Source: an uncultured Planctomycetales bacterium (lineage in GTDB: Bacteria > Omnitrophota > Gorgyraeia > Zapsychrales > JANLHA01). From it: a stretch of 64,000 nt of DNA. This document shows, piece after piece, positions 5,813-60,800 of the stretch. The notes beneath the pieces were generated by a model. That model made no database searches. It was not told the DNA's origin and worked only from the letters and a program-made list of their open reading frames with translations. The first letter of the stretch is position 1, and every line of letters starts with the position of its first letter. Location of the stretch: positions 13,096-77,095 of the forward strand of contig CAYJXI010000007.1 of assembly GCA_964374105.1 (NCBI GenBank), written 5' to 3'. A program made the translations under genes and the position numbers.

Positions 5813-6003
5813 TTTGCAGAGATGGAAGATCACCCCGCTATTGCGGGGTGTCCTCTTAAGGTGCGAAGGCGGATGCAATTTTCAATATAAAAACTTGGAA
5901 ACTCGAAATTTTTTGATGTATAACTCATTGCTTCATAGGTTGTCATCCCCCCCCCGTATTAAATGCGCGCTGGGGATCTATCTCTAGATTCAACAAGAAA
6001 TAG

Positions 6004-7773
6004 ATGAACATTGGAACATTTAAAATTTTGGAAAAGAAAATTATCATTCGCATCCAGGATCGGATCTGCGAAAACTCGGAAGAACTGTTATCAAATAATA
6101 TTTTTCAGGAGATTTTAAAACGAGCCATCGAAGATCTCTCCCAGCGCAATTCGTTTCTTTTGAATGTCTTTGGCCAACACGAGATCAATGAAAAAACCAT
6201 TCACACGTTGATTGAAACGATGAGATTTTTGACCAAAATGCCTGGCCATTTGCTACCTAACGTGGTGAAAGGATCAGATATGTTTTTAAAGGATTCTCAC
6301 CTCTTTAATGATTTCATTGAGTATCTTTATAATTATTGGCGAAGTTATGACCGTTTTATTATCTGCGATTCTTCCGGGGACGATCTCGATAAACGACCAT
6401 ACCGGACATTCAATTCAACCATTGAACATTTGATGCATATGATTCGCTGGACCTACCGTGATATTCAGGAAAATATCACTGGGAATCATCCACGGATTTA
6501 CCGGCAGGTGACGGCTGGGGCAGAGGTGGCTACCATTGCCTCAACTAAGGATATCCCATTTCCAACTTTGGTTTATCAAAAATTGAATTCGATTTCCTTG
6601 ATCCGTCAGATGCTGCTGTATCCGCCTTTAATTCTTAATCCTCCGATGAATAAACGATCTGGCAAGTTTGATCGAATTGACAAGAATCCCCTTGAAAAAA
6701 TTGATATCAATCCAGAAGAATGGCTTTGTTATCCAGCCAAAGTAGGCCCCTTGGTCATTTTGATCTATTTTCACCAGAAATTTTTAGAGTTGGGAGTATC
6801 CTTATGTAACCTTTTTGCCTTGGCCGAGGATGAAGATTTGAATAAAAACCCCGATGCGGTCTACACCTTTGGGGTTCCGGGGAATGTGTTGGATGAATTC
6901 GGATCTTTCCCAACAGTTTTTTATGATGATGAAAAGAATAACATGATGGTTGCGGCCGTTCCCAATCGGAATGAATTTGGTTATTTTGGTTATCTAAAAA
7001 AAATGGTCCTTACCTTGCACAATATCATCATGATGAAAAGAGGCCGATTTCCTTTTCATGGGGCTTTGGTGAAAATTATTCTTAAAGGTCATCGGGAAGC
7101 CACGATTCTTTTCATTGGGGATACCGGCGCCGGTAAATCAGAAACACTGGAGGCCTTAAGAGAAATCGGGTCAAAAGAGATCCAGGATCTTATCATCATT
7201 GCCGATGATATGGGTTCTTTGGATATTAACCAAGATGGGCAGGTGCTTGGTTATGGCACTGAGATTGGAGCGTTTTTGAGGCTGGATGATTTACAACCCG
7301 GTTATGCCTTGGGACAGATTGATCGGGCTATCATCATGAGTCCTAATCAAGTGAATGCGAGAATTATCCTTCCGGTGACGAGCTATGAAAATGTGGTGAA
7401 GGGTTACCGGATCGACTTTATTCTCTATGGGAATAATTATGATGAGATTGATGAAGACCATCCAGTCATAGAGCGATTCACTTCCGTTGATCACGCCTTA
7501 GATGTTTTTCGGGAAGGGACCGTAATGAGTAAAGGCACGACCACTTCAACCGGAATTGTGCATACCTATTTTGCTAATATTTTTGGACCTCCCCAATACA
7601 AAGAAATTCACGAGATTCTCACCCGGAAATTCTTTCAAATCTTTTTTAAGCAAGGCCTCTTTGTGGGACAATTAAGGACCCGATTGGGCTTAACGGGTTG
7701 GGAGAGAACCGGTCCCTTAGAAGCAGCCCAAGAACTCCTTAAAGTGATCAGCCCTTGTCAACCTTCCCTTTAG
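6004..7773 (+). CDS. Hypothetical protein with C-terminal HPr-kinase/PEPCK-like P-loop domain (HprK-related kinase)
   Basis: FHGALVKIILKGHREATILFIGDTGAGKSETLEALREIG...IIIADD closely resembles the HprK C-terminal P-loop (HGVLV...GDSGIGKSE...ADD). The N-terminal about 330 aa are unassigned. Confidence 0.45.
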   Translation: MNIGTFKILEKKIIIRIQDRICENSEELLSNNIFQEILKRAIEDLSQRNSFLLNVFGQHEINEKTIHTLIETMRFLTKMPGHLLPNVVKGSDMFLKDSHLFNDFIEYLYNYWRSYDRFIICDSSGDDLDKRPYRTFNSTIEHLMHMIRWTYRDIQENITGNHPRIYRQVTAGAEVATIASTKDIPFPTLVYQKLNSISLIRQMLLYPPLILNPPMNKRSGKFDRIDKNPLEKIDINPEEWLCYPAKVGPLVILIYFHQKFLELGVSLCNLFALAEDEDLNKNPDAVYTFGVPGNVLDEFGSFPTVFYDDEKNNMMVAAVPNRNEFGYFGYLKKMVLTLHNIIMMKRGRFPFHGALVKIILKGHREATILFIGDTGAGKSETLEALREIGSKEIQDLIIIADDMGSLDINQDGQVLGYGTEIGAFLRLDDLQPGYALGQIDRAIIMSPNQVNARIILPVTSYENVVKGYRIDFILYGNNYDEIDEDHPVIERFTSVDHALDVFREGTVMSKGTTTSTGIVHTYFANIFGPPQYKEIHEILTRKFFQIFFKQGLFVGQLRTRLGLTGWERTGPLEAAQELLKVISPCQPSL

Positions 7774-7852
7774 GTTCTTATCCATCATTCCTAAAAAGGA
7801 AAATATCTGATATAATTGCCAGAGTCTTAATCTTTTAAAGAGGGAGGAAAAG

Positions 7853-8410
7853 ATGAATACGTCGGCTTTCATAGAATCTCCCGTTTTTTCATGGGTTGTC
7901 CTGCCTCTATTGATTTTCATAGCCAGAGTCTTGGATGTGTCTTTAGGAACGGTTCGTATCATCCTCATCTCTCGGGGGAAAAAGTATTTATCCCCGTTTT
8001 TAGGATTTGTTGAGGTTATGATATGGCTCTTAGCGATTCGACAGATCATCTTTAATTTATCAAATTGGGCCTGTTATTTTGCTTTTGCCGGTGGGTTTGC
8101 CATGGGTAATTTTGTAGGGATATATATTGAGGAAAAAATTGCCATGGGGACTCAAGTGATCCGTATCATCACCAGAATGGAGGCCACCGACTTAATCGGG
8201 AGCCTTCAGCAAAAGGGTTACGGGGTGACGGTTGTGGATGCCATGGGAACAACGGGCAAGGTCAATGTCATTTTCACCATCATCAATCGCCGGGATCAGG
8301 ACAAAGTGATTGAACTCATTAAAAAATTTAATCCCAAGGCCTTTTATTCCGTTGAGGATATCCGTTCGGTCAAAGAGGGTGTTTTCCCGGAGTATGATAA
8401 AAAATTTTAA
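7853..8410 (+). CDS. DUF2179-containing membrane protein (UPF0316-like)
   Basis: 185 aa with an N-terminal TM region and a C-terminal GYGVTVVDAMG...VIFTII domain typical of DUF2179/UPF0316. Confidence 0.45.
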   Translation: MNTSAFIESPVFSWVVLPLLIFIARVLDVSLGTVRIILISRGKKYLSPFLGFVEVMIWLLAIRQIIFNLSNWACYFAFAGGFAMGNFVGIYIEEKIAMGTQVIRIITRMEATDLIGSLQQKGYGVTVVDAMGTTGKVNVIFTIINRRDQDKVIELIKKFNPKAFYSVEDIRSVKEGVFPEYDKKF

Positions 8411-8444
8411 AGCAGAAGTTCCTGACATTAGTGTTGAAATTGTT

Positions 8445-8565
8445 AATTCGTTATTCCTGCTTTAAGCGGAATCCAGACGACCCCGCCCAAGGCGAGGGAT
8501 CCCAGATTAAAGCATTCCTGCCTGCCGGCAGGCGGGGATGACACAAATCATGTCTCCAATCAATA
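8445..8565. repeat. GC-rich palindromic intergenic repeat element (contains gcctgccggcaggc perfect palindrome)
   Basis: Shares submotifs ctgctttaagc, ggaatccaga, ggatccc, cctgNctgccgNcaggc and gtcatcccc with the element at 60690..60800. Confidence 0.45.
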
Positions 8566-9310: not shown

Positions 9311-9329
9311 TCAAGGGGTTGCCATATTT

Positions 9330-10994: not shown

Positions 10995-11170
10995 CTATGT
11001 CTAGTGCATTGTCAGATAAATTTTCTGACAATGCACGCAGGGGGACTGGGGGAAAGCCTTTCCCCCAGGTTTGGGGGGTGCTTAAGCGAGCGAAGCGAGC
11101 GCCGAAGGGGGGCTTGCCCCCCTAGCGGAAGTGCGGAGTCAGTATAAAAATTTATCTGACGGAGCACTAG
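10995..11170. repeat. Structured GC-rich element bounded by about 20-bp terminal inverted repeats (MITE-like or ncRNA)
   Basis: 5' ctagtgcattgtcagataaa pairs with 3' tttatctgacggagcactag. Internal perfect hairpins are ctgggggaaagcctttcccccag and ggggggcttgcccccc, plus a gcgagcgaagcgagcgc motif. Confidence 0.35.
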
Positions 11171-11763: not shown

Positions 11764-11822
11764 AAGGGGACAGTTCCTTGATTAGAGAAAAGGGGCTGTC
11801 CCCTTTTTCTTTTTGTTGTATA
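11764..11822 (+). terminator. Rho-independent terminator (GACAG-core hairpin family)
   Basis: aggggacag ... ctgtcccct stem followed by tttttctttttg. Confidence 0.5.
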
Positions 11823-13169: not shown

Positions 13170-13261
13170 TTGCCGTCTAAAGAGCAGGGATAGGGCATGC
13201 CCGTCTTGTTTCGCATCGAAAAGAGTGGCCTGCTCTTTTCTTCAAAGATATCCTGATTTAA

Positions 13262-13292
13262 GAAAAGTGGCCACGTGGCCACTTTTCTCTTG
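13262..13292 (+). terminator. Terminator-like perfect palindrome gaaaagtggccacgtggccacttttc followed by a T-rich tract
   Basis: 26-nt perfect inverted repeat with tctcttgg after it, about 90 nt downstream of the corA stop. Confidence 0.45.
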
Positions 13293-13775
13293 GAGGTGTG
13301 CCGAGCATGAACAGTGGTTAGAGAGGGTGAGTTCAGAACATCGTATACCCATAACAGGATTACGCCTTTTGATTATGGTTACGAGATCCGTTTCGGTCAA
13401 GGTTACGTTATTCGCTTCTTCTCAACGACAAACGTCACCGAAAGCCGATACGGTTATCGTCTCCGTAACCGAAGGATGTAAGACAGAGTGTCGTTACCAG
13501 AGTAAACGATGTCTTGATATTTGACATGTAGTTGAGGGGTCGGAGAGTTTCCGACCCCTCATGACCCCTCGGGTAAGGTAGCTTAAAAACTCCCCGAGTG
13601 GTCATGTAGTTAGAAGAGTCAATCAACAAAGAAGTGATTTTTGTTGCCTTCTCTACCCTGTGCCCTCTCAAGAAATGTGGTTTACGACCCCCACCTTGTT
13701 AATTGCTGCAAATAATTTTATACTTTTATTAAGATAAATCTTAAAATTCATCCTTATAATTTTCAAATAAAACAA

Positions 13776-16700
13776 GTGATGTTCCAAACAAAAGTTTCTA
13801 GATTGTTTTTGAAGGTCACAGCCCTTCTTGTTATTTTCTCAATGGTTGTGACATCGAATCTTTTATTTCTGGGAGAAAGGGCCTATGCCCAAGTCATTAA
13901 CCTAGGATCCAGTGGGCTTACTCTTCCCTCTCCCGGCAGTCTTGTCTCGTTGAGTGCTGGGTTTCAACCGGTTGTCCTGAAAGGTATTAAAGTATATCCG
14001 CAGAATCCATTCCATTTTGACTTTATTGTTGATACCGGCGACAGCAAACTTAAAGAAGACCAGTTAAAGCAGGAGTCGACCAGACTGATTAAATATTTTC
14101 TGGCCTCCTTGACTGTTCCAGAAGATCAGATGTGGGTGAATTTATCCCCTTATGAAAAGGAACGGATCATCCCGGAAAGCTTTGGTGTCACCGAGATGGG
14201 ACGGGATATGTTACTGCAGGATTATCTCTTAAAGCAGTTAACTGCCTCGTTGATTTACCCGGAGCATGATTTGGGGAAGGCCTTTTGGGAGAAGATCTAT
14301 CAGAAGGCCTATGAGCAGTACGGGACAACAAATATTCCGGTCAATACCTTCAACAAGGTGTGGATTCTACCAGAGCGGGCAGTTGTCTATGAACACGAAG
14401 GGATGGCCTTTGTGGGGGAATCCCGCTTGAAGGTGATGCTGGATCATGATTATCAGGCTTTAAGAAGTCAACTGCTAAAGGATCAAGGTGCCACGGATCC
14501 CTCGCTTAAGGCTAAGGAGGTTAATGATCTTTCCGGCTCAATAGTCAAGGATTTGATCGTTCCGGCGATTGAAAAAGAGGTCAACGAAGGGGAAAACTTT
14601 GCCAATTTGCGGCAGATCTATCATTCGCTAATTTTGGCGGCTTGGTATAAGCGGACTTTGAAGGAGAGTCTTCTAGGTCAACAGTATGTTGATCAAAATA
14701 AGGTCAAAGGCATTGACCTTGAAGATAAAGAGATCAAGCAAAAGATCTATGAGCAATATCTTAAGGTGTTTAAGAAAGGGGTTTACAACTATATCCGGGA
14801 GGATTACGATCCCTACACCCAAGAATCCATCCCTCGCAAGTATTTCTCAGGAGGGATTGAGTGGAAGATCAATGAAGATTTACAAGTCACTAATGTGAGG
14901 GAAAAGAAAACATTCACAAGGCTCTTTCAAGGAGTTGTGGCGGGTGTGGTCATGCTGGCGAGTGTGGCCTTAAGAAGTCCTGCCTATGCTCAAGACAATA
15001 CCATATCACCTCTTCCCCAACCTCCAGCCCCTGGCCTATTAGAAAATGAGGAAAAGCCTATCGAAAAAGAAGCCCCCAATCAAGGTGTGGTCATTAAAAA
15101 CTTGGACTCAATCGCTAAAGAAGGCCCTCTTGATGAGAAAGATTTTAAAGATGGCTTTGACTTGAGGGATGCTTTAAACGCTATCTATCAATCGGATGAA
15201 GCTGATGAGTTTAAACAGAAGGTTGTCTCAGCCAAAATATTTTCAAGGCTTTTTAATGTTTATTATGAAAATCTGATGGATGAGAAGAAGGCTGATCGTT
15301 TAAAAGTGCGTGCAGTTCACTTAGCTGAAATTGTTGGTACTATTTTAAGGCATCAGCAAAATGAGATTGAAGAAGAAATTCTTGAGAACGATATTATCGG
15401 GAAAATTCGCAATATTTATCACGCGGAGGTTGTCAATCGCAAACTGCTCTTTGAGTTAGCAAGAACCGGCCCTTCTTCTCATGAGGAGGGTTCCTCCCTG
15501 AAACAACCCAATCGAAGCTATTTCAATTGGGTGTGGCAAGAAAAAATCCAGGAACATATTGATGAAGGAAGGTTCCCCAATATTCAACAAAAGTTTGGCC
15601 CGCAAGTACCATCTTTAAGAGATCAAATGAGATTTTATAATGGAGGGGCATTTGAGCTGACCAAGGCCGTTGTTAAATTAGGCCAATCAAAAAATCAAAG
15701 AGTAATAAAGGAGATCAAAAAGGCGGGATTAATCAAATCCCTTTTTCATTACGCAACCCTTCCTTCTCCTGTTAATGGTTATGTCTCTGCCACTACCGAG
15801 ACCATGTTGGGTCTAGCCGAAATCATCGAAGCCCAGCCAGGGTTTTTCTTAGAAGAACTCAATGAGATCGATGAGGTCCTTGGCCAGAGCATAGTAGATT
15901 TTATCAAAGACAACCTTGGGAAAGAACACGCTGCCCCTTATCAAAGATTAACAGATTCTAAAGCATCACCAAGTTATGAAAAAGCCTTTAGAAAGATTAA
16001 AGAAGCTACCACAGATGCAACCTCATTCATTGATGAGGCGGATTTCTCGATAAAAGTTTCCCAAGAAGTCTTAGAAACTTTAAGAAAGACATCCAGTGGG
16101 CAAGATGAGAACGGTTATTTTCTTTTTGTGAATAAAGGAACTGGTGTCATTGAGAAAGTAACGAATAGGTATGTTCATTCAAACAGGACGAATTTTTACG
16201 TTAACGAAGGTTTTCTTCATTACGCCAATGAGCTTGCCAAAAAACATGGGTATCTTTTGATCGGAGATTTTCATGCCCATCCGGATACCTTTATTAACCT
16301 TAAAGAGATGCCAGAAGAAGGATTCAAAGATGATGGCAGGGCCTATGATTTGTTAAGTCGGGGAGATTCCGTTTCGGGTCAGGTAAGGACTAAGCAACTG
16401 AATTTTTTGGGTGTGGGTTTCGATGGGAACTTTGAGGTTTTAGTCTATTTGCCCCTTTTTGAAAAAACACTGGGTGTGGGGCATGCTTATCTTAAGAGAA
16501 AAGATGAATTTCTAGACAAAGGTGTTTTTCCGGCTAGATCGCGGGTCATCAAAAATAGAAGTCAAGAGCTCGTGAGATTAAAATTAAAGGTCGTTGATTC
16601 AACAGTTCCGAGTGACCTAGATATCTTGGATCAATATCCCCCTTTCATCAAACAGAGTAAAAAGGAATTGAATTCTCAAGAATATGGTGATCTCATTTAT

Positions 16701-19700
16701 AACCTTAAAAAGATTGGCCTTGCTAACATGACGATTACATCCGCTGGATTAAAGATAAAGGGACTCGAGGCAAGGTTACAAGCCTTACGCGATCGACTAC
16801 AGACAGAGGATGTTAAAAAAGAAATAGAGAACTTACAAGAAGAAATCCAAAAATTAAGAAAAGTCTCTTATGAAAAAGACCATGATCATTTTGATTTTGT
16901 AGGAGAAAAGGATCCGGGAGTCATTATTTTTGTGGAAAGACAAGATGGAATCTTTGTCATCAGCGGTTCGGTTAATGACATCGATGATTTCCAATTGTGG
17001 TACAAGGAACACGATGGTTCTATTGCTACTTTGCTATTTCGGGTTGGGACAAACTTATATACAGCACACGAGAAAGATGCAACGGAAGTTGCCAGATTTT
17101 TACAATCATGGATAAAAATGCATAAAGCAGGGATAGGGGAGGGTATCTTGCAAAAGGTATCAGCAATAGAGAATCTCCCTCGTCAAGTCGGTGCTTTGTT
17201 GCGGGAGAATCAGGTGGAGGAATTGGATAATTTTGTCTCGGAAGAATACCTTAAGTTCATCAATACTAATCAAACATTGCTTGAGGAGTTTACCAGGGGA
17301 GTCTTGGATCGGGGTGTTTCGATTGAAACATGGGAACTTCTTCAAAAGAAAGGTGGCCCGTGGGGAAAAATTGCTAATAGTGTCTTAAAGAAATTGGGTG
17401 GGGAGGCAGAAATTCTCAAGAAGACAAAGCAGATCATTGATGATGGCATCAAGGAAAAGCGAACTCCTCAAGAATTAAGGCAGAAACTTACGGAGCTTAT
17501 AAAATATAGCAGTATCTACCGAGATATGATCTCTGGAGGAGTGACTCGATTGATTGAAAAAAGAAAGGTTGAAAATGATTTTGCGTTGAGATTGTTTGTG
17601 GTTTATGTGGCTAAATATACCTATGTTTATCTTTTAGATCAGCTAGGTCTGAGGGGTGAGGAGTTTGATAACTTTTTAGAAGAGTTTTTAGACTCAACCA
17701 CCCCTTATTATGAGGATAAACTGATTTGGGATGGGACAATTGATTATAAAGAAGGACATATCAAACCAAATTTAAATGCCAAGATCCGCGGGATCGAATG
17801 GATATTTGATATAGTCATCCACGAAGCGATCCATAAGATTGTTGCCGCCGATTGGATGCGGGAATATTTAAGATTAAATTTTGGTGATGACATGCGTTGG
17901 CTGTTGGCTACAGCGTTGGGGAGATTCAATGCCGGCATTATGGAAGGGACATTTCTTGAAGCGGGATTTCAACCTCCCTTTGGAAAGGAGACTTTTGTGG
18001 ATCGCCAAAGAACACCCTTCTTAACCCATGCAAAATTTCGTCTTATCCCTGATACGATTAGAACATGGGATGAAGTTGTCAAATATATCGAAGAGAATAA
18101 AGGGGGAAAAACCTGGGGTGATGAGCCAGGCAAATCCTATATCGAAGGAGATCTCTTAGCGGTATACTCAGCCTATCATTATGGTAAGGGGGGGGGTCTT
18201 CTTATCAGACTTTACGGAACCCGATTCAAGGAATTGAATTTTGCTCAGATGGAGTTGGCGGCAGCGGTTCTAAGGAATATCTTAAAGGGTCATGAGGTAG
18301 AAGGGTCGTTTTTTGATTTGGAAGAGAAAATCATCGTTGAGGTAAGAAAATTAGATTTGAGAGATGATACGACCTACGAGACCTTAGAGGAAAAAGAAAA
18401 GGGACTGACCGAATCTTTAATAAAAGAGTTGAAAGAAGCCGGTCAAATTAAAGAAGTCAAAAAGACTTCCCAAAATATCCGTGATCGAGAGGAGACTAAA
18501 AAAGATCAGGCGATTCTGACGGATGGCTTAAATGCCCAAGGGATTGCTCAACTTGACTATGGAGCGATTGTCTCGGCTATCAAAAAAGCAGAAGAACAGC
18601 ATGTCAGTCCCCTTGATTTGGCTCGTGAGCTTTTCCAAAAAAACAATATATCATTGGATGAACAAAATCAATTAACTCTTTATACCTTCCTTGTCGTTCT
18701 TGATGCCTTAAGGAGAATCGGGATAGTTTATGAAAATCTTCAGCCCCCCACTTTGGTGGGGATGATGAGGGTGCTTCTCCCTCATTTAAAGAGCTTGGAT
18801 CCTCAAAACAAAGATCCTTTGGGGACCATCAGAAAAATTGAGGAAGGTATTAATGATAGAAATTCAAAGATCTTTCAAGAGTTTATTGAGCATATCCTTG
18901 ATGTTAAGGATTTAATCTCCCCCACGACCGGACGAAGCCGATATCCTGACCAGACCTTTTTCTTGCAAGAATTTGCCCTGCCGCGGTTGATTGCCTTTAA
19001 AAAGATGAGGAATGACCGGGTGATCCGAATCGGGAGTCTGGGTTCATCCACTGGAGAAGACTTAATGAAATTGGCTGAGACGGTTTCGATAGTCTTCCAT
19101 CAGACTGGGGAAAACTTAAACGATTGGAAAATCATTTTGGAAGCGCGGGATGTCTCAGCTAAGTCCCTCAATGTGTTTAGAGAAACAGCGCAAGCGGAAT
19201 TGACTCATCCTGTTTTTCAGATTGAAACAAAAGTGACGATTCTGGGGGATAAGGAAGATCTCAAGGAGATTTCCAATCTTTCCTATGACATCTTAGCGGT
19301 TCGAGCAGTTGGGGAATATTTAAGGCCGCAGATAAGGACACAATTAGGAGATGCTCTTCATTCCACTTTGCTTCTTTCCGATCGTCATATCATCCCCAAC
19401 AATGAATCTTATCTCTCTTTCGCTGAAGTGGGACCTTTTCAGAATGTGCACCAATCCCGAAAAGGGGATTTCCCTCTGATTCAACTTAAGCCTCAAGAAC
19501 AAGAAAAAATCAAAGAATATCAAATCAAGAAAATGATTCCTCTGATCCAATTGGAACTTAAAGAGGCCATCCCGCGTATCTTTGCAGAGGAAGGGCAGAT
19601 CAGAGAGCTCATTGAAACGTTAGCACAAGAAACAAAGGAATCTTCAGATACCATTTTCAAGTTCATTATGGATTCTGCCCGTCATGTCGATTTGGAAGAT

Positions 19701-22700
19701 GAAGAAAGAATCAAGGCCTTACTCTTTGATGAAACGAAAGCAGAAGAGACAGGGACTTTTGCTGAATTTAAAGAGAGGGTTATGAAAGGATGGGATAAAA
19801 GGAAGAAATCCCCTCAGGGGGAGGAAGGCATTAAGAAAGATGAGGCAATCCTGACAAGTTTAGAAAAATTGGAACAAGATTTTTTAGACGGGACTCTGTT
19901 ACAAGAAGGAATTGCTCGAATCAATCAAGAGCATCCAGAGTTAAATATTAGAAAATCTTCCGACATTTCCAAACTTAATAGCAAAGTCGCTAATTTCGAT
20001 ATTGCCTTTTTACCTTTACTGACCAAAATCCCTCAGGCGGTTTTGACCGATCAAGATTGGGGGATTTATCGACTGACTAAAGAAGGAATTGAATTGAGAA
20101 GTGGGGATGGGATTCAGAAAGAATTGATTCCCTTTACGAAAGAGGCTCAAGCGCTTATCGCTAAACTCCTAGAGAAGTATGAGGAGGTTTACTTCGACCA
20201 AAGAATTAATGCAACAACGAAATCCTATGTTGTCCACCCCTTTTATTACGATCAAGGAGATATGTCAATCGCCATTTCTTTGATTAGACGGGGTATTGAT
20301 TTGGTAAGTCAAACAATTGATATAGATCATGAAGAACACCGCAGGGTTTTATTTACCGATGAAGAATGGGACATGAATATTCATCAAGATCGACCTATGC
20401 CGGTGCAGTTTACCTTAATCATCTTAGGTCTTTTGGAAAGATTGCCAGCGATTTTAAGACCGGGGGTCACAAGAGAGGATTGGTACTGGGTCCCACGCGA
20501 GAGTGGTATTGAATTTGTCAATAAAGTGACGGGTGAACATGAATGGGTCAATTTTACTCCCGATGAAACGGTTTTGAATTTACCAGAAACTCAAAAGATC
20601 AGGCACATCTTTGAGATTTTAAGGTTATTACCTTCGCATCATGCCATGAATGACTTGGATCAGAAGTTGTTAAAAAATGAACAAGGGTTATTAACGATGT
20701 ATGATCAATTGCGATTAGCTATCCAAAGAAATTTTGATGATCATGTTCCTTTAGCCTACGATCAATATGAAATTTTAGCCGGCCTAAAAAATCGAGGGAA
20801 GGTCCTAGAGCAAGAAGCGATCAACAGCCGATTCACGTTAAGAGAATTACAACTTATCTATGCAATGTTGTCCTCCTTACCTAGAGAAATTGTTGATCAA
20901 TACCAAGATCAATTCTTTTCTTTTCGGCCTCGGGAATTAAGAAATTTTACACAATCTTATCCAGAAGATGGGCATGCCTCTTTGGTGATTGCACCTTTAA
21001 ATATGCGGGAGGTATGGATGTTTTGGGATATCATTCGAAGTAAAGAAATCCGTGGCTATTTAGGTCAATTCACGAAAGAGAAAATCATTGAACTTTCTTT
21101 TATCCGGATGCTTTTGCACGAGCTAGCCCACCGGGTCTATAAAAATCTTGATACAAAACTTCAACGTGCTTATGGTGGGATTTCCTGGGATATGAAGTCT
21201 TGGACTGGACAGGAAGCCACGAAAAAAAGGAACCAGGGGAGGCGTTTCTTGGGAAAACATTTCCTCATTGATTATGCCTTCCCTGAGGAAGATAATTCGC
21301 AAGAAGATTTTGTGGATCAGTTCTCGGCTTATATTTTATTTGGTCCCCAGTTTCGAAGGGCAGCCGAACGTTCCGCCGCCATCAAGGCCAAATATAATTT
21401 TTTTAAGAATATATTCAAAGGGAATGAGTACGAAAGGAATTTTGATTATCATGCTAAAGTCCCTCAGATCGATCAGGCAATGATCACACAGGATGAACTG
21501 AAACAAAAGCAGGCTAAAGTGGATCAGATGTTAGAGCAGGTGCGTGCCTTGCGGGAGGGGCCTCACACATCCCTTAATCTTAAAAAGACCGCTGAGGATT
21601 TTGAAAAAGTTTATCCGCGATTGTTAGAATTTTCCGATCACCTCATTCAGCGTTATCAAGAGATAGCGAATCGATACAGATTAAACCCAGGTGAGATAAG
21701 ACTTTATATGGTTGGTGGACGTGTGAGGGGAACGCCACTTAAAGAAGATAGTGATATTGATTTGATTTTTGCAGTGGAGAATCCGGGAAGTTCATTGGGA
21801 AGAATTCCGTTTGAGCGATTTTCCGATCCATTAGAAGCATGGGATTTTAAATTAGATCGGATGAAGGAATTGTTGGCTGATGTATCCAAGATTTCAAATC
21901 AGTTAGGTGTTAGGAACCTTTTTCATATTTTAAGTCTTGATGTAAAGATTCCTGAGGATGATTTGATTGTAACCCAAGAGAGACTTTTATTAGCAAAATC
22001 GAAGGGACAAACGACTGCCTTTCCCGCAACGACGACAACCCCTCAACGAGATGAGGCGATGGTGACGCCAGATCGTCAGCCCCAGCAGATCTTGATGGAA
22101 AGGATGGGCTTTGCCAGTGCTATGCTGGAATTGAAATTGAATATTCATGGTTTGGAGATGGAGAATCTCTTTCAACATTATGAGAAAGAACATGACGCTT
22201 ACATCTTAGACGATAAAGTCATGGATGTGATGGGACAACTGGGTGGGATGAAAAATGGGGAGGCTCTTAATTTGGTTGGTTTTGTTTTTATCCGCGGGAG
22301 CACGGTAGAAAAACTTAAAACAGCTGATAAGGAGGCATTCCTCTCTTTAAGGCATGAACAGAGGCACAATGATTATCATGCCATTCACGGCTATGCCATT
22401 GAATCCAGCGAACAAAAACTCATTGATGAATTGTATGCTTACTTTGCCTCATTTATCCAAATCTACGGGGTGGAAGGCCTCACAACAATCCAAGAACGAC
22501 AGATCGGCACAGGCCCCTGGGCCCAGATTGTTCTCAATGTCCTCATTCAGGATTATTTGAAGGATGAGCGTGAGGAGGCACTTAAAGCAGATCTCATTGA
22601 ACGGCTTCGCTATGTGGCCAGTATCTTAGATTGGTATTTAAAAACTCAAGATCCCAATATGATCTTGGAATTTTTAAAAACAGCCACCTCATTGAATCAA

Positions 22701-23801
22701 ATCTTGGCAATGGTGAATTTTGATTATCTCAAAGACAATTTGAAAGAAAAGATTCCTTTAGAAGAATATGAGCGGCTTGCTGGCCAATTTAGAAAATTTA
22801 GAAGTGATTTCCAAACAATGAAATCAAAAGAGGGTGGCCGTGCTTCTCAATTTGAGGCAAATCCCCAACGCGACCAGGCGATGGTGACAAAACCAGGAGA
22901 ACCATTGATCCCTCCTTTATGGGAAGGGCAGATTCGGTATGTTCCGGAAGCGATGGTCAAGAAGGGAGGCTGGAAACTCCATTTGCGGGTTCAACCGCAT
23001 GGAAGATTCGCAGAGATTATCCACAAGTGGCTGTGGAGGAATACAAAAAAAGGAGAGGTCGGTTATAAATATTTACATGGGGGAGACAAGGGAGAAAAAG
23101 ATTTTACAATTTATGTAGGACCTAAAAAAGATGCTGATCAACTGGCCATCAAAATTTCCCAAGAGATTGGGTATCTCTTAAGGAATCCAGGAGAACATAT
23201 TCTCGAAACAGACATCGAATTCGCTCCCAAAGTCTGGGGCCGGTTCGATGTGAAGGATATTGAAGGGAATCAATACTTCTATGGGATGGTAAGGGCGGGT
23301 GTTGAAGGAACAGGGATTCCCATCTTGAAGAAAGATTGGCATGAGAGGTTTAGATTATTGTTTAATTATGGGAAGCCCCGCTCACCACAACAAGAGAAAG
23401 CCGACCACAAGAAACTGCGCCAATCAGAACCATTGTTTATCCAAAGAGCGTTTGATCTCTTGAAAAATGAGTTGGGAGACTATTTTACAGGCGGGGCAGA
23501 AAATGTCGAAGGGCTTTCTCCTAAAGGAGAGAGACCTTTGGAACAAGAGGGGAAAAGTAAAGATGAAGCTATGATCACAAAGCCTGTTGGTGGGATTGAC
23601 TTTGCACCTGGGAATTTGATTTTGGATATAAAGAGAGATGCTAACGGGGCGCCACTTCCTTTGCCAGTTCAGCAGATGCAGCAGATCAAAATTGATGGAC
23701 TTGTGCCGGTGATTATTCAGATCACACCGGTGACGAATTTCCCACTTCTTTTTGGCCTGTCGGAACAAGGGACCGAAGAACAGCTTTCCTTAAAGGATTG
23801 A
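13776..23801 (+). CDS. Giant (3341 aa) secreted/membrane-anchored multidomain protein of unknown function
   Basis: Uninterrupted 10,026-nt ORF with an N-terminal hydrophobic signal/anchor (...FLGERAYAQ). Internal motifs include HEAIH, HELAH and an NTase signature GGRVRGTPLKEDSDIDLIFAVEN. Confidence 0.8.
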   Translation: MMFQTKVSRLFLKVTALLVIFSMVVTSNLLFLGERAYAQVINLGSSGLTLPSPGSLVSLSAGFQPVVLKGIKVYPQNPFHFDFIVDTGDSKLKEDQLKQESTRLIKYFLASLTVPEDQMWVNLSPYEKERIIPESFGVTEMGRDMLLQDYLLKQLTASLIYPEHDLGKAFWEKIYQKAYEQYGTTNIPVNTFNKVWILPERAVVYEHEGMAFVGESRLKVMLDHDYQALRSQLLKDQGATDPSLKAKEVNDLSGSIVKDLIVPAIEKEVNEGENFANLRQIYHSLILAAWYKRTLKESLLGQQYVDQNKVKGIDLEDKEIKQKIYEQYLKVFKKGVYNYIREDYDPYTQESIPRKYFSGGIEWKINEDLQVTNVREKKTFTRLFQGVVAGVVMLASVALRSPAYAQDNTISPLPQPPAPGLLENEEKPIEKEAPNQGVVIKNLDSIAKEGPLDEKDFKDGFDLRDALNAIYQSDEADEFKQKVVSAKIFSRLFNVYYENLMDEKKADRLKVRAVHLAEIVGTILRHQQNEIEEEILENDIIGKIRNIYHAEVVNRKLLFELARTGPSSHEEGSSLKQPNRSYFNWVWQEKIQEHIDEGRFPNIQQKFGPQVPSLRDQMRFYNGGAFELTKAVVKLGQSKNQRVIKEIKKAGLIKSLFHYATLPSPVNGYVSATTETMLGLAEIIEAQPGFFLEELNEIDEVLGQSIVDFIKDNLGKEHAAPYQRLTDSKASPSYEKAFRKIKEATTDATSFIDEADFSIKVSQEVLETLRKTSSGQDENGYFLFVNKGTGVIEKVTNRYVHSNRTNFYVNEGFLHYANELAKKHGYLLIGDFHAHPDTFINLKEMPEEGFKDDGRAYDLLSRGDSVSGQVRTKQLNFLGVGFDGNFEVLVYLPLFEKTLGVGHAYLKRKDEFLDKGVFPARSRVIKNRSQELVRLKLKVVDSTVPSDLDILDQYPPFIKQSKKELNSQEYGDLIYNLKKIGLANMTITSAGLKIKGLEARLQALRDRLQTEDVKKEIENLQEEIQKLRKVSYEKDHDHFDFVGEKDPGVIIFVERQDGIFVISGSVNDIDDFQLWYKEHDGSIATLLFRVGTNLYTAHEKDATEVARFLQSWIKMHKAGIGEGILQKVSAIENLPRQVGALLRENQVEELDNFVSEEYLKFINTNQTLLEEFTRGVLDRGVSIETWELLQKKGGPWGKIANSVLKKLGGEAEILKKTKQIIDDGIKEKRTPQELRQKLTELIKYSSIYRDMISGGVTRLIEKRKVENDFALRLFVVYVAKYTYVYLLDQLGLRGEEFDNFLEEFLDSTTPYYEDKLIWDGTIDYKEGHIKPNLNAKIRGIEWIFDIVIHEAIHKIVAADWMREYLRLNFGDDMRWLLATALGRFNAGIMEGTFLEAGFQPPFGKETFVDRQRTPFLTHAKFRLIPDTIRTWDEVVKYIEENKGGKTWGDEPGKSYIEGDLLAVYSAYHYGKGGGLLIRLYGTRFKELNFAQMELAAAVLRNILKGHEVEGSFFDLEEKIIVEVRKLDLRDDTTYETLEEKEKGLTESLIKELKEAGQIKEVKKTSQNIRDREETKKDQAILTDGLNAQGIAQLDYGAIVSAIKKAEEQHVSPLDLARELFQKNNISLDEQNQLTLYTFLVVLDALRRIGIVYENLQPPTLVGMMRVLLPHLKSLDPQNKDPLGTIRKIEEGINDRNSKIFQEFIEHILDVKDLISPTTGRSRYPDQTFFLQEFALPRLIAFKKMRNDRVIRIGSLGSSTGEDLMKLAETVSIVFHQTGENLNDWKIILEARDVSAKSLNVFRETAQAELTHPVFQIETKVTILGDKEDLKEISNLSYDILAVRAVGEYLRPQIRTQLGDALHSTLLLSDRHIIPNNESYLSFAEVGPFQNVHQSRKGDFPLIQLKPQEQEKIKEYQIKKMIPLIQLELKEAIPRIFAEEGQIRELIETLAQETKESSDTIFKFIMDSARHVDLEDEERIKALLFDETKAEETGTFAEFKERVMKGWDKRKKSPQGEEGIKKDEAILTSLEKLEQDFLDGTLLQEGIARINQEHPELNIRKSSDISKLNSKVANFDIAFLPLLTKIPQAVLTDQDWGIYRLTKEGIELRSGDGIQKELIPFTKEAQALIAKLLEKYEEVYFDQRINATTKSYVVHPFYYDQGDMSIAISLIRRGIDLVSQTIDIDHEEHRRVLFTDEEWDMNIHQDRPMPVQFTLIILGLLERLPAILRPGVTREDWYWVPRESGIEFVNKVTGEHEWVNFTPDETVLNLPETQKIRHIFEILRLLPSHHAMNDLDQKLLKNEQGLLTMYDQLRLAIQRNFDDHVPLAYDQYEILAGLKNRGKVLEQEAINSRFTLRELQLIYAMLSSLPREIVDQYQDQFFSFRPRELRNFTQSYPEDGHASLVIAPLNMREVWMFWDIIRSKEIRGYLGQFTKEKIIELSFIRMLLHELAHRVYKNLDTKLQRAYGGISWDMKSWTGQEATKKRNQGRRFLGKHFLIDYAFPEEDNSQEDFVDQFSAYILFGPQFRRAAERSAAIKAKYNFFKNIFKGNEYERNFDYHAKVPQIDQAMITQDELKQKQAKVDQMLEQVRALREGPHTSLNLKKTAEDFEKVYPRLLEFSDHLIQRYQEIANRYRLNPGEIRLYMVGGRVRGTPLKEDSDIDLIFAVENPGSSLGRIPFERFSDPLEAWDFKLDRMKELLADVSKISNQLGVRNLFHILSLDVKIPEDDLIVTQERLLLAKSKGQTTAFPATTTTPQRDEAMVTPDRQPQQILMERMGFASAMLELKLNIHGLEMENLFQHYEKEHDAYILDDKVMDVMGQLGGMKNGEALNLVGFVFIRGSTVEKLKTADKEAFLSLRHEQRHNDYHAIHGYAIESSEQKLIDELYAYFASFIQIYGVEGLTTIQERQIGTGPWAQIVLNVLIQDYLKDEREEALKADLIERLRYVASILDWYLKTQDPNMILEFLKTATSLNQILAMVNFDYLKDNLKEKIPLEEYERLAGQFRKFRSDFQTMKSKEGGRASQFEANPQRDQAMVTKPGEPLIPPLWEGQIRYVPEAMVKKGGWKLHLRVQPHGRFAEIIHKWLWRNTKKGEVGYKYLHGGDKGEKDFTIYVGPKKDADQLAIKISQEIGYLLRNPGEHILETDIEFAPKVWGRFDVKDIEGNQYFYGMVRAGVEGTGIPILKKDWHERFRLLFNYGKPRSPQQEKADHKKLRQSEPLFIQRAFDLLKNELGDYFTGGAENVEGLSPKGERPLEQEGKSKDEAMITKPVGGIDFAPGNLILDIKRDANGAPLPLPVQQMQQIKIDGLVPVIIQITPVTNFPLLFGLSEQGTEEQLSLKD

Positions 23802-30613: not shown

Positions 30614-30623
30614 CCAAAAGTAG

Positions 30624-30643
30624 GGGCACGGCATGCCGTGCCC
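30624..30643. repeat. Perfect 20-bp palindrome gggcacggcatgccgtgccc (family member)
   Basis: The same arms recur at 31076..31126 (interrupted by a 26-nt insert) and at 37974..37999. Confidence 0.5.
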
Positions 30644-30674
30644 TGCCAGGCTTATTTTAAAGGAGGGGAAAACG

Positions 30675-31061: not shown

Positions 31062-31073
31062 AAAAAAGACGGT

Positions 31074-31128
31074 AGGGGGCACGGCATGCTCGCCTCGCTT
31101 CGCATCGGCGCAGCGGGCCGTGCCCCTC
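31074..31128. repeat. Split copy of the GGGGCACGGC palindrome with nested GCTTCGC-containing insert
   Basis: gggggcacggcatgc + tcgcctcgcttcgcatcggcgcagcg + ggccgtgcccc. Confidence 0.45.
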
Positions 31129-31155
31129 CTAATATTTAAAATAAAGGACCACTAA

Positions 31156-32757: not shown

Positions 32758-32797
32758 AGTAGGTGACAGTCACTGTAAAATGACAGTCACCATTGTT
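32758..32797. terminator. Bidirectional terminator-like hairpin between convergent genes (two copies of palindrome gtgacagtcac)
   Basis: ggtgacagtcactgtaaaatgacagtcacc lies between the convergent 31575..32747(+) and 32803..34644(-) genes. Confidence 0.4.
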
Positions 32798-37946: not shown

Positions 37947-37967
37947 GATGACATTAAATTGTTTATA

Positions 37968-38010
37968 AACAAGCAGGGGCACGGCAGGCCGTGCCCCTGC
38001 TTGTTTTGTG
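37968..38010 (+). terminator. Rho-independent terminator (GGGGCACGGC palindrome family)
   Basis: caagcaggggcacggc-agg-ccgtgcccctgcttg followed by ttttgtg. Confidence 0.6.
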
Positions 38011-41234: not shown

Positions 41235-41253
41235 ATAAAAGAATAAAAGGTGA

Positions 41254-41285
41254 CAGTCCCGCCAAGGCGGGACTGTCATCTCAAT
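41254..41285. repeat. GACAG-core hairpin ggtgacagtcccgcc-aa-ggcgggactgtcatc between the regulator and pilB
   Basis: Perfect 15-bp stem with no U-tract. It gives the spurious mirror ORF starts MTVPP... on both strands. Confidence 0.45.
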
Positions 41286-44224: not shown

Positions 44225-44231
44225 AGGAAAA

Positions 44232-44276
44232 AGGGGACAGCGCCCTTTAAAGAAAGGGTGCTGTCCCCTTTTTCAC
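44232..44276 (+). terminator. Rho-independent terminator after pilC (GACAG-core family)
   Basis: ggggacagcgccc-tttaaagaaa-gggtgctgtcccc followed by ttttt. Confidence 0.55.
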
Positions 44277-44436: not shown

Positions 44437-44560
44437 GGGGCCCCCCGCGAAAAGCGGAGGCCCCCGCTGAACTTAAAGCGGGGGACAAAGCTAGAGGGTC
44501 CTGCTTCCGCGAAGCCTGACTGCGTCAGGCAGACGGCGGGATAGCCAGCTGCCATCAATG
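44437..44560. repeat. Cluster of GC-rich hairpins (cccccgct...agcggggg; gcctgactgcgtcaggc; contains gcgaagc) upstream of the pilin gene
   Basis: Three or more short perfect stems in about 120 nt; the surrounding DNA is AT-rich. Confidence 0.4.
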
Positions 44561-46998: not shown

Positions 46999-47004
46999 GC
47001 AGTA

Positions 47005-47043
47005 GGGGCGACCCCTGCCTGCCGGACAGGCAGGGGTCGCCCT
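47005..47043. repeat. Long perfect hairpin ggggcgacccctgcctgcc-gga-caggcaggggtcgccc after the pilin genes (GCCTGNC...CAGGC family)
   Basis: About 17-bp GC-rich stem with no U-tract. Confidence 0.45.
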
Positions 47044-47131
47044 TACGCCTAAACGCATGTTAGCAGCGAGAGATTTAGGAACTTCCCCTCGTGGTCAAAA
47101 ACTTTTTTAACAAAACACTGAAAAAAACCAA

Positions 47132-52914: not shown

Positions 52915-52927
52915 GTTTTGATTTGCA

Positions 52928-52966
52928 GAAAAGTGACAGTCACCAAAAGGTGACTGTCACTTTTCT
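52928..52966. repeat. Intra-operon perfect hairpin aaaagtgacagtcacc-aaaa-ggtgactgtcactttt between pstC and pstA
   Basis: 16-bp perfect stem in the 51-nt pstC-pstA gap. A T-tract follows on the transcribed (minus) strand. Confidence 0.45.
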
Positions 52967-56964: not shown

Positions 56965-57297
56965 GGGTTAATCTTCCTTGATGAAATAGTTCTTTTGATC
57001 AATGGGGATTATGAATTTGGGAAATCATTTATCTGTCTACGCATAAGACCCCCCGCCGTTTTGGTTCGCCTGTTGACAGGCAGGCAAAGCGAAGCAGCGC
57101 AGGATGAATACGAAAAAAATGCTTCAGAGGATTTCGCCCGAAGAGGCAAGCCCATGGGATTCCATTGGATAATATTATACTCGAAATTAGGATTCCTAAG
57201 ACAAATTTTCCTTAAAGGTCACTTATCCGTGCGATATGTGAGGGGAGATATTTAAAGTTGAGGAAAGTTAAGATTGTGACGAGTTTATTCTGATTCA

Positions 57298-58902: not shown

Positions 58903-58931
58903 GCGCTTCCCCGACAAATTCCTTGACAAAA
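58903..58931 (+). promoter_or_regulatory. Strong sigma70-type promoter TTGACA-N17-TATATT
   Basis: Exact -35 consensus at 58903..58908, a 17-nt spacer, and -10 TATATT at 58926..58931. Confidence 0.45.
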
Positions 58932-59009
58932 AAGACCTTTTTCTTTATATTAGAAAAGTTCTGAATAATGGAGAAGATCCTCAAATATTCGGATAGGCAA
59001 TATGCCATT

Positions 59010-59046
59010 GGCGGCTGTATGAGTAGCCGCCTTTTTATTTTTTAAA
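59010..59046 (+). terminator. Rho-independent terminator (ggcggct-gtatgagt-agccgcc + tttttatttttt)
   Basis: 7-bp GC stem plus a long U-tract, about 80 nt upstream of the GGDEF gene start. Confidence 0.55.
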
Positions 59047-59124
59047 TTTTTTGTTTGAAGATAAGAAGCTTTGTATTAAACCACGGGTTGTAAGTTAACT
59101 GCGCAGGGGTTAGCGACTTAAGTA

Positions 59125-60534
59125 ATGTCTTATTTTGCCAATAATAAAGAAATTAATCTCCTCCATCCGGAAGCTCAGAAAATTTTCCGTAATCTGATTG
59201 AATCGGTGAAAGCCGGAATCTATATGGCCGATTCTAAAGGGAAATTATTCTTTGTCAATCAGACCTTTGTGGATATTTTGGGTTATAACAATAAACAAGA
59301 GGTTTTAGGACTGGACTTAGTCCAGGTTTTATATACGGACTTAGAAAAACGAAATGTCTTTTTGAAAACGATGGAAAAGGTGGGTTTTGTACGTGATGAT
59401 GGAGTTAAGATTATGCGAAAAGATGGATCGATGGTGAATGTGTCTACCACCAGCCATGTTATTCGAAATGAAAAGAATGAAGTGATTGGCTTTGAAGGGA
59501 TCATTCAGGATATCACCGAAAAAAAAGAATTGGAAGATAATTTAAAAATCGAAAAATTCAAATTGGAACAAATCCTCTCTTTCGAGGAAAAAATCCGCTC
59601 GATTCATAAATTTGATGAATTGGTCAACTTTATTGTGGAGAAAACAACCCAGATTCTCAATGCGGCAAGATGTTCCCTTATGCTTGTGGAGGAGGGTACC
59701 CAAGAATTGTCGATTAAGGCGGCCATTGGTTTAGATAAGGAAGTGATGAAAAACACCCGAGTTAAATTAGGAGAGCCGATTGCCGGGCTGGTGGCCCAAG
59801 AGGAAGATCCTGTTTTGGTCAAGAATATTGAATACGATCAGCGTTTCAAAAGGGGTAATAAACCCTATTATCGAGGCCGATCTTTTATGAGTGCTGCTAT
59901 CAGGCAGGATCATAAACTGATCGGAGTCGTCAATGTCTCGGATAAAAATCCCCAGAATTCTGATAATTTCAATGAACTTGATTTGAAAATTTTAAGTACC
60001 ATTGTCCGTCAGGCGGCTGGGATCATTGAGAATGCCAAATTGTACAATGAATTGGAATATCTGTCTAAAATGGATCCTTTAACGGATCTTTATAATTATC
60101 GAAGTTTTGTTAAGAGTTTAGATCAGGAAATCAATCGTCTTAAACGCTATCCCGGCAGTTTAAGTTTACTGATGATAGACGTGGATGATTTTAAGACCTA
60201 CAATGACACCCACGGACATCTGGAAGGAGATATCCTTCTAAAGAAACTGAGTGACGTTTTCAAACAGCATTTGCGTTCGGTTGATACCATCTGTCGCTAT
60301 GGAGGAGATGAGTTTGCGGTGATCCTGCCCGGTACGGATAGCCAGCAGGCGAAGCTGGTTGCCGAAAAACTCAGGAAAAATGTGGAAGAGGTTCCCTTTA
60401 AAGATAAGATCACCTTAAGTATCGGGATTTCTGATTACCAGTCCCATTTAAGCCGGTTTGATTTAACCCGCCTGGCGGATAAAGCCCTTTATCAAGCTAA
60501 ACGAGAGGGGAAAAACCGAATTGGGATTTATTAA
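59125..60534 (+). CDS. PAS-GAF-GGDEF diguanylate cyclase
   Basis: PAS (FVNQTFVDILGY...), GAF (...ARCSLMLVEEG...), and GGDEF with an intact RYGGDEFAVIL active site. Confidence 0.85.
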   Translation: MSYFANNKEINLLHPEAQKIFRNLIESVKAGIYMADSKGKLFFVNQTFVDILGYNNKQEVLGLDLVQVLYTDLEKRNVFLKTMEKVGFVRDDGVKIMRKDGSMVNVSTTSHVIRNEKNEVIGFEGIIQDITEKKELEDNLKIEKFKLEQILSFEEKIRSIHKFDELVNFIVEKTTQILNAARCSLMLVEEGTQELSIKAAIGLDKEVMKNTRVKLGEPIAGLVAQEEDPVLVKNIEYDQRFKRGNKPYYRGRSFMSAAIRQDHKLIGVVNVSDKNPQNSDNFNELDLKILSTIVRQAAGIIENAKLYNELEYLSKMDPLTDLYNYRSFVKSLDQEINRLKRYPGSLSLLMIDVDDFKTYNDTHGHLEGDILLKKLSDVFKQHLRSVDTICRYGGDEFAVILPGTDSQQAKLVAEKLRKNVEEVPFKDKITLSIGISDYQSHLSRFDLTRLADKALYQAKREGKNRIGIY

Positions 60535-60689
60535 ATGCCTTCTTCATCTTCTTAAAAAAACCTTCCCACCTTTTCTAATCCAATACCCTCCCCAATTCAT
60601 AAAAATTAATGAAACAATTAATCATCTTCTCCTTCTGTATGTTATATTTTAAAGAACATTATGAAACATGACTGTCCAAATTACCAAAT

Positions 60690-60800
60690 TGTCATTCCTG
60701 TCCCGCATTAAATGCGGGATAAACTTGCTTCTGCTTTAAGCAGGGGGCAGGAATCCAGATGGGAAATCTGGATCCCCGACCTGTCTGCCGACAGGCAGGT
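60690..60800. repeat. GC-rich palindromic intergenic repeat element (paralogue of 8445..8565)
   Basis: cccgcattaaatgcggg, ctgctttaagcag, ggaatccagatgggaaatctggatcc, cctgtctgccgacaggcagg. Confidence 0.45.

Follow-up and report, generated by a model that had tools for sequence, protein, structure and literature searches.

Probable GTAG- and CGTC/TGTC-tagged REP palindromes among the GC-rich intergenic hairpins of an apparent Omnitrophota genome

The 64,000-nt stretch of contig CAYJXI010000007.1 analysed here (the window) carries numerous GC-rich intergenic hairpins, most of which are probably small non-autonomous palindromic repeats of two known super-families of repetitive extragenic palindromic (REP) elements, one tagged with GTAG and the other with CGTC or TGTC. 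These are new members of known super-families in a little-studied phylum and, as such, largely ordinary; the parts worth pursuing are an identical GTAG-tagged REP in genomes labelled with over 20 lineages and, above all, the REP copy within RayT transposase genes of other genomes. The original prediction had grouped all listed sites into one repeat family. Instead, they comprise the two super-families, a palindrome nested within the loops of both, three composite regions and ordinary terminators. In annotation, these GC-rich intergenic hairpins are best entered as REPs of the two super-families, and reading the REP hairpins as terminators, small RNAs or new genes should be avoided.

The recurrence of GC-rich hairpins is real, although several of the coordinates and motif strings first proposed were slightly off. 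The window has a GC content of ∼41% and a GC skew that is positive throughout, and the hairpin elements have a GC content of 48–73%. There are 32 hairpins with ≥ 8 pairs in the window, as compared with 7–14 in shuffled sequences, and at least 17 of these 32 fall in intergenic DNA, which makes up roughly 10% of the window. Proteins identical to those encoded here are found in the metagenome-assembled genome (MAG) GCA_947085705.1 as well as in Logan assemblies from runs ERR3478686 and ERR4904390-92; for the CusA-like pump and for a histidine kinase, the closest named homologues are almost all from Candidatus Omnitrophica/Omnitrophota. About 69 kb of this genome was examined (the window and its sequenced flanks), to which look-ups with the window's end genes added no sequence, and the comparison loci fetched from other assemblies (L-numbered) total 1.66 Mb. 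The Pfam check covered 43 of the 53 window open reading frames (ORFs) of ≥ 90 amino acids taken as genes, the other ten being minor ORFs between 24.6 and 27.4 kb and between 47.1 and 49.8 kb. Neither tRNAs (ARAGORN) nor Rfam families (gathering threshold) were found in the window.

Five GTAG-tagged REPs lie in the window (13528, 30620, 31072, 37973 and 47002), three belonging to class GGGCACGGC, one to class GGGCGACC and one to neither. The class GGGCACGGC-NN-GCCGTGCCC is present in two full copies and one split copy, against 0.00 expected. The unit GTAG-GGGCACGGC-AT-GCCGTGCCC (30620..30645, plus strand) begins 7 nt past the stop codon of a cusA-like gene; the split copy, GTAG-GGGGCACGGC-(31 nt)-GCCGTGCCCC (31072..31130, plus strand), has its loop expanded to 31 nt and lies 11 nt past the stop codon of the YHS gene. 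At 37967..38006 (no strand assigned), 21 nt past a cold-shock gene, the same core forms part of a perfect 19+19 palindrome, AAACAAGCAG-GGGCACGGC-AG-GCCGTGCCC-CTGCTTGTTT, with a GCAG tag on both strands and terminator-like A/T frames. The class GGGCGACC unit, GTAG-GGGCGACC-CCTGCCTG-CCGGA-CAGGCAGG-GGTCGCCC-TTAC (47002..47046, plus strand), holds a 20-nt palindrome in its loop and starts 4 nt past the stop codon of a pilin-like gene. The fifth hairpin, GTAG-T-TGAGGGGTCGGA-GAGTT-TCCGACCCCTCA (13528..13561, plus strand), 4 nt past the stop codon of ORF 13225-13524, was classed by tag and structure. In addition, GATAGGGCATGCCCGTCTTG (13185..13215, plus strand) is a possible degenerate relic of an GGGCACGGC REP, with a weak 78% match to 31076-31107 and a resemblance to ...GCCGTGCCCGTCTTG variants of other genomes.

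All five units are short GC-rich imperfect palindromes, in keeping with the REP definition (about 20–45 nt), and their tags (GTAG at 30620, 31072, 47002 and 13528, GCAG at 37973) follow the rule of GTAG or GYAG/GTRG placed 0–2 nt 5′ of the stem. They lie 4–27 nt downstream of stop codons, between gene pairs that are all co-directional. The motif first proposed for three of these sites, GGGGCACGGC(A/C)(T/G)GCCGTGCCCC, is exact at 37976, but at 30623 its final base is T, and at 31076 there is only the left arm, its partner arm being found at 31117 beyond the 31-nt loop. The string GGGCACGGCNNGCCGTGCCC has 2 matches in the window versus 0.00 expected.

A scan of one genome per species with the pattern GGGGCACGGCNNGCCGTGCCC returned at least 120 stretches, and the figures that follow refer to the matches listed. 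Exact copies of the class GGGCACGGC hairpin occur in genomes that bear the labels of over 20 lineages, including Acidobacteriota, Chloroflexota, Planctomycetota, Nitrospirota, Gemmatimonadota, Omnitrophota, Cyanobacteria, Verrucomicrobiia and Clostridia, several proteobacterial and desulfobacterial groups, a Coxiellaceae MAG and one MAG labelled archaeal. GTAG stands directly 5′ of the stem on one strand at 119 of the 140 sites (85%) and on both strands at 27 of them, against a rough chance level of about 0.8% for a random tetranucleotide on either side; the scan pattern itself is conserved by construction, while the flanks that hold the tag were free to vary. More than one copy was seen in 17 of 120 loci. 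The genome from which the window comes was not represented in the 120 stretches listed. Other Omnitrophota loci contain the same class as well as the related classes GGGCGACCC (L132) and GGGCAATTC (L025), and the relative L132 also holds a GTAGGGGCGACCC REP related to the window unit at 47002. Literature text searches with the exact REP sequence gave unrelated primer matches only.

By published definition, members of the GTAG REP super-family consist of GTAG followed by a GC-rich hairpin, and they serve as substrates of REP-associated tyrosine transposases (RAYTs or RayT; PMC3733652; PMC6006769). The tags, stem rules, CCA tail, head-to-head dimers and 3′-end position found here and, apart from the expanded loops of the CGTC type, the loop rules agree with published descriptions, in which a site near the upstream ORF's 3′ end is given for 'uni-REPs' (PMC3733652). 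As in Escherichia coli REP/BIME, Pseudomonas REPIN and Stenotrophomonas SMAG elements (PMC3733652; PMC2817692), a 5′ GTAG stands beside a GC-rich 9–16-bp stem with a 2–5-nt loop; the units are extragenic near the 3′ end of the upstream ORF, are patchy in relatives and, in other genomes, lie beside PF01797 RayT genes. Unlike in those systems, the host of the window appears to belong to the Omnitrophota, the window copies are mostly single rather than in inverted pairs, and many RayT homologues have the unit within the coding sequence, not only alongside it. The identical stem in over 20 labelled lineages likewise contrasts with REP classes being usually treated as lineage-specific.

The proposal that a cognate tyrosine transposase is encoded elsewhere gained support, for the GTAG-tagged hairpins, from other genomes in which the REP flanks or lies within PF01797 RayT genes. 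A regular expression for the HUH motif and Y..NP retrieved three RayT ORFs, with PF01797 proteins in L040, L101 and L124. In the acidobacteriotal locus L101, 440 nt separate the RayT gene from two GGGCACGGC REPs that form an inverted pair. No neighbour gene family was enriched in the 8-kb surroundings of 120 REP loci (all-against-all BLASTP of 3223 ORFs), and phmmer with an approximate IS200 TnpA sequence as query found nothing. ORF 30633-31061, which has a REP on either side, was considered as a RAYT and rejected: it encodes a YHS-domain protein.

Several RayT genes contain the REP itself. This holds for L040 (Dehalococcoidia), L124 (Anaerolineae) and L256 (Nitrospira), where the REP is part of the RayT coding sequence just past the HUH motif and the protein reads ...MPNHVHGIIVIN-CRGTACRAPT-AERFGKP... 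at this point. A GTAG...CTAC palindrome at this position was recorded in four PF01797 genes (L040:1898-2509, minus strand; L124:120-716, plus strand; L254:10001-10549; L256:2572-3174). The in-gene unit of L254 is of another REP class, which is also that of a unit 74 nt upstream, whereas the REPs that flank the L256 gene belong to classes other than that of its in-gene unit. A homologue search returned at least 7988 proteins, some of them named 'REP element-mobilizing transposase RayT', and the REP-encoded peptide stands at the post-HUH position in 113 of the best 120 of these, a set biased by a query that itself carries the peptide. The peptide variants are RGTACRAPT or VGARHAVPL, which are two frames of the same palindrome, or VGAKNFSPL, which corresponds to GTAGGGGCGAAAAATTTTTCGCCCCTAC. 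The palindrome is thus read in two frames, and it is therefore the DNA palindrome that is kept, not the peptide. No mention of a REP inside a RayT gene was found by text search of PMC3733652, PMC6006769 and PMC5581495, which is not proof of novelty.

We tentatively propose that the GGGCACGGC REP is a many-phyla REP lineage that travels with one large RayT family and of which a palindrome copy is kept in the transposase gene after the HUH motif; other REP classes might, with the same reserve, replace the in-gene copy in other homologues. If this were true, and the site were not a mere permissive insertion hotspot, the RayT gene would physically carry its own substrate, and the in-gene copy could be a master copy or a self-regulatory site. 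It could also explain the horizontal spread of an identical REP and the short variable insertion after the HUH motif. An in-gene REP, if confirmed to be undescribed, would offer direct access to the question of how coupling between REPs and their domesticated transposases is maintained and how both spread.

The second super-family is represented in the window by a singleton (5941) and two head-to-head dimers (8449-8543 and 60690-60820). Published members of the CGTC super-family have a CGTC, TGTC or CCTC tag, 8–9-bp stems starting with AT, 4–5-nt loops and a CCA tail, and occur mostly as head-to-head dimers; Neisseria dRS3 (CGTC-1) and Rickettsia RPE-4/6 belong here, and no dedicated transposase is known for the class (PMC3733652). 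The singleton, TGTC-ATCCCC-(21-nt loop with GTATTAAATGCG)-GGGGAT-CTA (5941..5980, plus strand), is identical in the independent Logan assemblies L127 and L262. In the first dimer, the left unit CGTT-ATTCC(T)GCT-TTA-AGCGGAAT-CCA (8449..8475, plus strand) has the layout YGTC-ATTCCTGC-GNRA-GCAGGAAT-CCA of metagenome copies. Its partner, TGTC-ATCCCCGCC-..-GGCAGGAAT on the minus strand (8514..8543), nests the 20-nt palindrome (8517-8536) and reads ATTCCTGCC-..-GGCGGGGAT-GACA on the plus strand, after the spacer. The second dimer consists of TGTC-ATTCCTGTCCC-(39-nt loop with two small palindromes)-GGGGCAGGAAT-CCA (60690..60757, plus strand) and a minus-strand unit (60769..60820) with the plus-strand sequence TGG-ATCCCCGA-(20-nt palindrome 60779-60800 plus 9 nt)-TCGGGGGT-GACA; a small hairpin separates the two, and the loop of the right unit measures 29 nt. 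Fold z-scores are −3.6 for 8445-8550 and −6.5 for 60685-60830.

The terminal tag is TGTC at 5941, 60690, 8543 (minus) and 60820 (minus), and CGTT at 8449. The stem is followed by a CCA tail at 8473 and 60755 and, for the minus-strand unit, at 60769-60771, while the singleton has CTA in this place (5978). Stems start with AT (ATTCC.., ATCCCC..), and the only short loop is that of 8453-8472. In metagenomes, a scan for ATTCCTGC-N3-6-GCRGGAATCCA returned at least 120 stretches on contigs of 33–68% GC. Among the matches listed, TGTC or CGTC precedes 97 of 129 tabulated copies, and 41 of the 129 are head-to-head dimers of the form ...CCA-spacer-TGG-ATTCCCGC-NNNN-GCGGGAAT-GACR, the same layout as the window dimers. 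The loops of ATTCCTGC-NNNN-GCAGGAAT (L134-L253) are overwhelmingly GNRA (GAAA 51, GAAG 22, GGAA 15), and some metagenome copies are loop-expanded as well. The Omnitrophota locus L014 has TGTC-ATTCCTGC-GAAA-GCAGGAAT-CCA immediately beside a GTAG REP. The window units share with CGTC-tagged REPs (Neisseria dRS3/NIME and Rickettsia RPE-4/RPE-6; CGTC-1 to CGTC-4) the TGTC/CGTC tag, the AT-initial stem, the CCA tail and the dimer arrangement tag-stem-loop-stem-CCA, spacer, TGG-stem-loop-stem-GACA. They differ mainly in their loops, which are 8–39 nt long with nested palindromes, as opposed to 4–5 nt and mostly GNRA in metagenome copies.

The sub-motifs that had suggested a single family are shared because a 20-nt palindrome ('hairpin b', CCTGCCTGCC..GGCAGGCAGG) is nested within the loops of both REP kinds. 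As CCTGCCTGCC-GG-CAGGCAGG, it occupies the loop of the 47002 GTAG REP and recurs in the right unit of each CGTC dimer (copies at 8517, 47014 and 60780, and a degenerate one at 57065). The motif reported from these sites, GCCTG(C/T)C-N3-CAGGC, is exact at 47017 and nowhere else; the true recurring unit behind it is CCTGYCTGCC / GRCAGGCAGG, with 8 arms (8517/8527, 47014/47025, 57075 and 60780/60790) against 1.77 expected, a number that none of 100 shuffles reached. A further shared motif, GCATTAAATGCG, is exact at 60705, but its copy at 5956 is GTATTAAATGCG, with one mismatch. The pair ctgctttaagc and ggaatccaga does occur twice, as stated, with the real positions being 8457/8468 and 60731/60750, where CTGCTTTAAGC and GGAATCCAGA co-occur. 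The GCGAAGC heptamer, singled out for its d(GCGAAGC) mini-hairpin, is at most weakly non-random (9 copies on both strands versus 3.63 expected, with 3 of 100 shuffles reaching 9); five of the nine sit within genes, and we do not treat it as meaningful.

It is quite improbable that all listed sites are one MITE-like mobile family (miniature inverted-repeat transposable elements) moved by a single transposase, as might be argued from the palindrome common to 8517, 47014 and 60780 and from CTGCTTTAAGC and GGAATCCAGA being common to 8457 and 60731. Tags (GTAG versus TGTC/CGTC), stems and organization all differ, and an intergenic all-against-all BLAST gave only short local matches. The nested palindrome links the sites but does not make one family, and is also found alone, in L130 and at the very start of L127, a contig that begins upstream of the window. 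Moreover, the literature keeps the two tag super-families apart and ties RAYTs to only one of them (PMC3733652). As a separate observation, in L130:6574-6855 and in the same gene of L131 the palindrome CCTGCCTGCCGGCAGGCAGG lies in-frame in a small Cys-rich ORF, to which it appears to add a PACRQAG-containing peptide.

Another explanation, which we consider unlikely, is that the hairpins are the organism's transcription terminators or 3′-end mRNA hairpins, alike through local sequence preference and without mobility. Like Rho-independent terminators, they are GC-rich stem-loops right after stop codons, and every unit is located 4–160 nt past a stop codon, between co-directional genes; the A/T frames of the 37967 copy resemble those of the bidirectional terminators at 44227 and 52927, and G.T mismatches occur in the stems on the sense strand. 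In contrast to such terminators, however, a full stem running into a T-tract is seen for none of the tagged REP hairpins, as judged by a scan covering the window outside 20001-44000 and, for 30620, 31072 and 37967, from the sequence; two fragmentary 5-pair matches overlap 47002 and 60690. Lacking a T-tract, the REP hairpins are therefore not canonical terminators, a role once suggested for them. They carry conserved tags, the identical GTAG-tagged 20-mer recurs in many lineages, the GGGCACGGC unit is associated with RayT genes, and two REPs lie within an apparent cusA-YHS-DUF2231 operon.

The relatives provide a further argument against the terminator explanation, and for REPs. A comparison of orthologous sites, as called for in the original prediction, showed that L130 and L131 (CusA 85% identical) keep the cusA-YHS-DUF2231 order and lack both REPs (30620 and 31072). 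In L128 (6636-6736) and L129 (CusA 84% identical), an ∼100-nt palindromic TGTCATTGCGAGG...CCTCGCAATGACA stands directly after cusA, where the window has the GTAG REP. For a second such comparison, at the histidine kinase beside two elements, the homologue search gave no relative above 52% identity.

Assemblies give further signs of mobility or multiplicity. Independent ones of the same DNA end at 11047, 11081, 52964, 60726 (twice), 60797 and 60854. Thus, 7 of 16 in-window assembly ends coincide with or adjoin hairpin elements, listed ones in six cases and the 52927 terminator hairpin in one; such elements cover < 3% of the window by a rough estimate. A further copy of the 20-nt palindrome stands at the start of the contig whose beginning lies upstream of the window. 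REP hairpins would account for the fragmentation of this lineage's assemblies at these points. L004 tracks the window to 60728 and from 60729 enters a variant with the canonical right unit TGG-ATTCCCGC-TTTC-GCGGGAAT-GA, which could be a strain allele or, alternatively, a second copy. Two assemblies of this species differ by just four single-nucleotide polymorphisms in 22 kb, one of which falls in the stem at 47002 (window 47043 versus L125:21832), changing CCCCTAC with a G-C pair in the other assembly to CCCTTAC with G.T in the window.

Neisseria dRS3 repeats are known as integration targets. By analogy, the hairpins could primarily be recognition or target sites for something else, such as site-specific insertion of IS110-type elements or filamentous phages, or DNA uptake sequences, to which we assign only the slimmest of chances. 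The correspondence of CGTC-1 repeats to dRS3 (PMC3733652) and the type IV pilus or type II secretion system (T2SS)-like genes in the window speak for such a role. Against it, no insertion sequence (IS) or phage was recognized beside any window copy among the Pfam-checked ORFs, and the density is far too low for uptake sequences, with no copies in genes. A target role would be compatible with REP identity anyway.

Three GC-rich regions stand apart. The largest, a 170-bp multi-hairpin composite (11001..11170, no strand assigned), has the 24-nt inverted termini CTAGTGCATTGTCAGATAAATTTT / AAAATTTATCTGACGGAGCACTAG and a predicted RNA fold of −93.7 kcal mol−1 (z = −7.95), and two independent assemblies break within it, at 11047 and 11081. 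A second copy was found neither in the window nor in the fetched loci nor, by a scan with the termini, in JGI metagenomes (0 matches), and no target duplication was evident in the flanking sequence. A hairpin cluster at 44437..44560 (no strand assigned; fold z −2.4) lies between T2SS-F-like and pilin genes and had no match in the other fetched loci. The region 57045..57105 (minus strand), in the 3′ region of the porin gene, is accounted for only by a degenerate copy of the 20-nt palindrome (GCCTGTTGACAGGCAGGC). BLAST of all composite elements against the 1.66 Mb retrieved only this palindrome. MITEs include the Correia elements of Neisseria and the QMITEs of Coxiella. The elements of the window resemble these in being short, non-coding, structured and intergenic and, at 11001-11170, in having inverted termini; unlike MITEs, 11001-11170 lacks a detected second copy, target duplication or parent IS, and the REP units, at a far smaller size, carry tags in place of terminal inverted repeats.

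The most plausible route for the GTAG copies, by analogy with known systems, is that a single-strand DNA hairpin and its tag would be recognized and cleaved by a HUH/Y1 RayT, the product of a single-copy gene at another place in the genome, which may thereby spread copies into intergenic DNA. A RayT gene flanked by or containing GTAGGGGCACGGC..GCCGTGCCCCTAC would then be expected in this genome. Repeats inserted just past stop codons, with co-directional genes on either side, are probably transcribed together with the upstream gene and could fold as RNA hairpins at mRNA 3′ ends, acting as stabilizers or attenuators rather than as canonical terminators. For this genome, RayT-driven mobility and any RNA-level role are inferred.

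Several observations weigh against assigning the window elements to the two super-families, or against their mobility. Neither the Pfam scan of window ORFs nor the annotation of the sequenced flanks revealed a RAYT (PF01797), and its association with the REPs was seen in other genomes only. In the roughly 69 kb examined, each class showed only 3–5 copies. The units at 13528 and 37973 are provisionally assigned, by tag and shape only. Four of the five CGTC-type units have loops of 8–39 nt, where 4–5 nt is canonical, and one tag is CGTT. The regions 11001-11170, 44437-44560 and 57045-57105 are outside what a model of two super-families explains. The assembly breaks could also come from poor coverage over strong hairpins, and are therefore supportive, not decisive, for mobility. 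Finally, stem mismatches on the sense strand are G.T in 14 cases versus A.C in 1; such a bias is compatible with RNA folding, although the plus strand's positive GC skew confounds it.

Genuine A/T-framed terminators are also present in the window, at 11784, 44227, 45132, 52927 and 59010. Ordinary bidirectional A/T-framed terminator hairpins, which are not REPs, were recorded at 11784-11812, 13261-13288, 32762-32791, 41248-41281, 44227-44274 and 52927-52966. Terminator-like hairpins share the frames AGAAAAG...CTTTTCT and the cores GTGACAGTCAC and GGGGACAG, neither of which showed clear enrichment in other genomes; GGGGACAG fits the GGGGWSAS motif reported for inverted repeats flanking TIRYT genes. 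As to the genes, a 3341-amino-acid ORF (13776-23801, plus strand) has no Pfam match at E ≤ 0.001. The window further encodes a cus/czc-type efflux system of the resistance-nodulation-division family followed by YHS, DUF2231 and ArsP genes, an Na+/H+ exchanger, the cold-shock gene, several two-component systems, a T2SS/type IV pilus-like cluster, pst-phoU-phoBR, the porin and a GGDEF protein.

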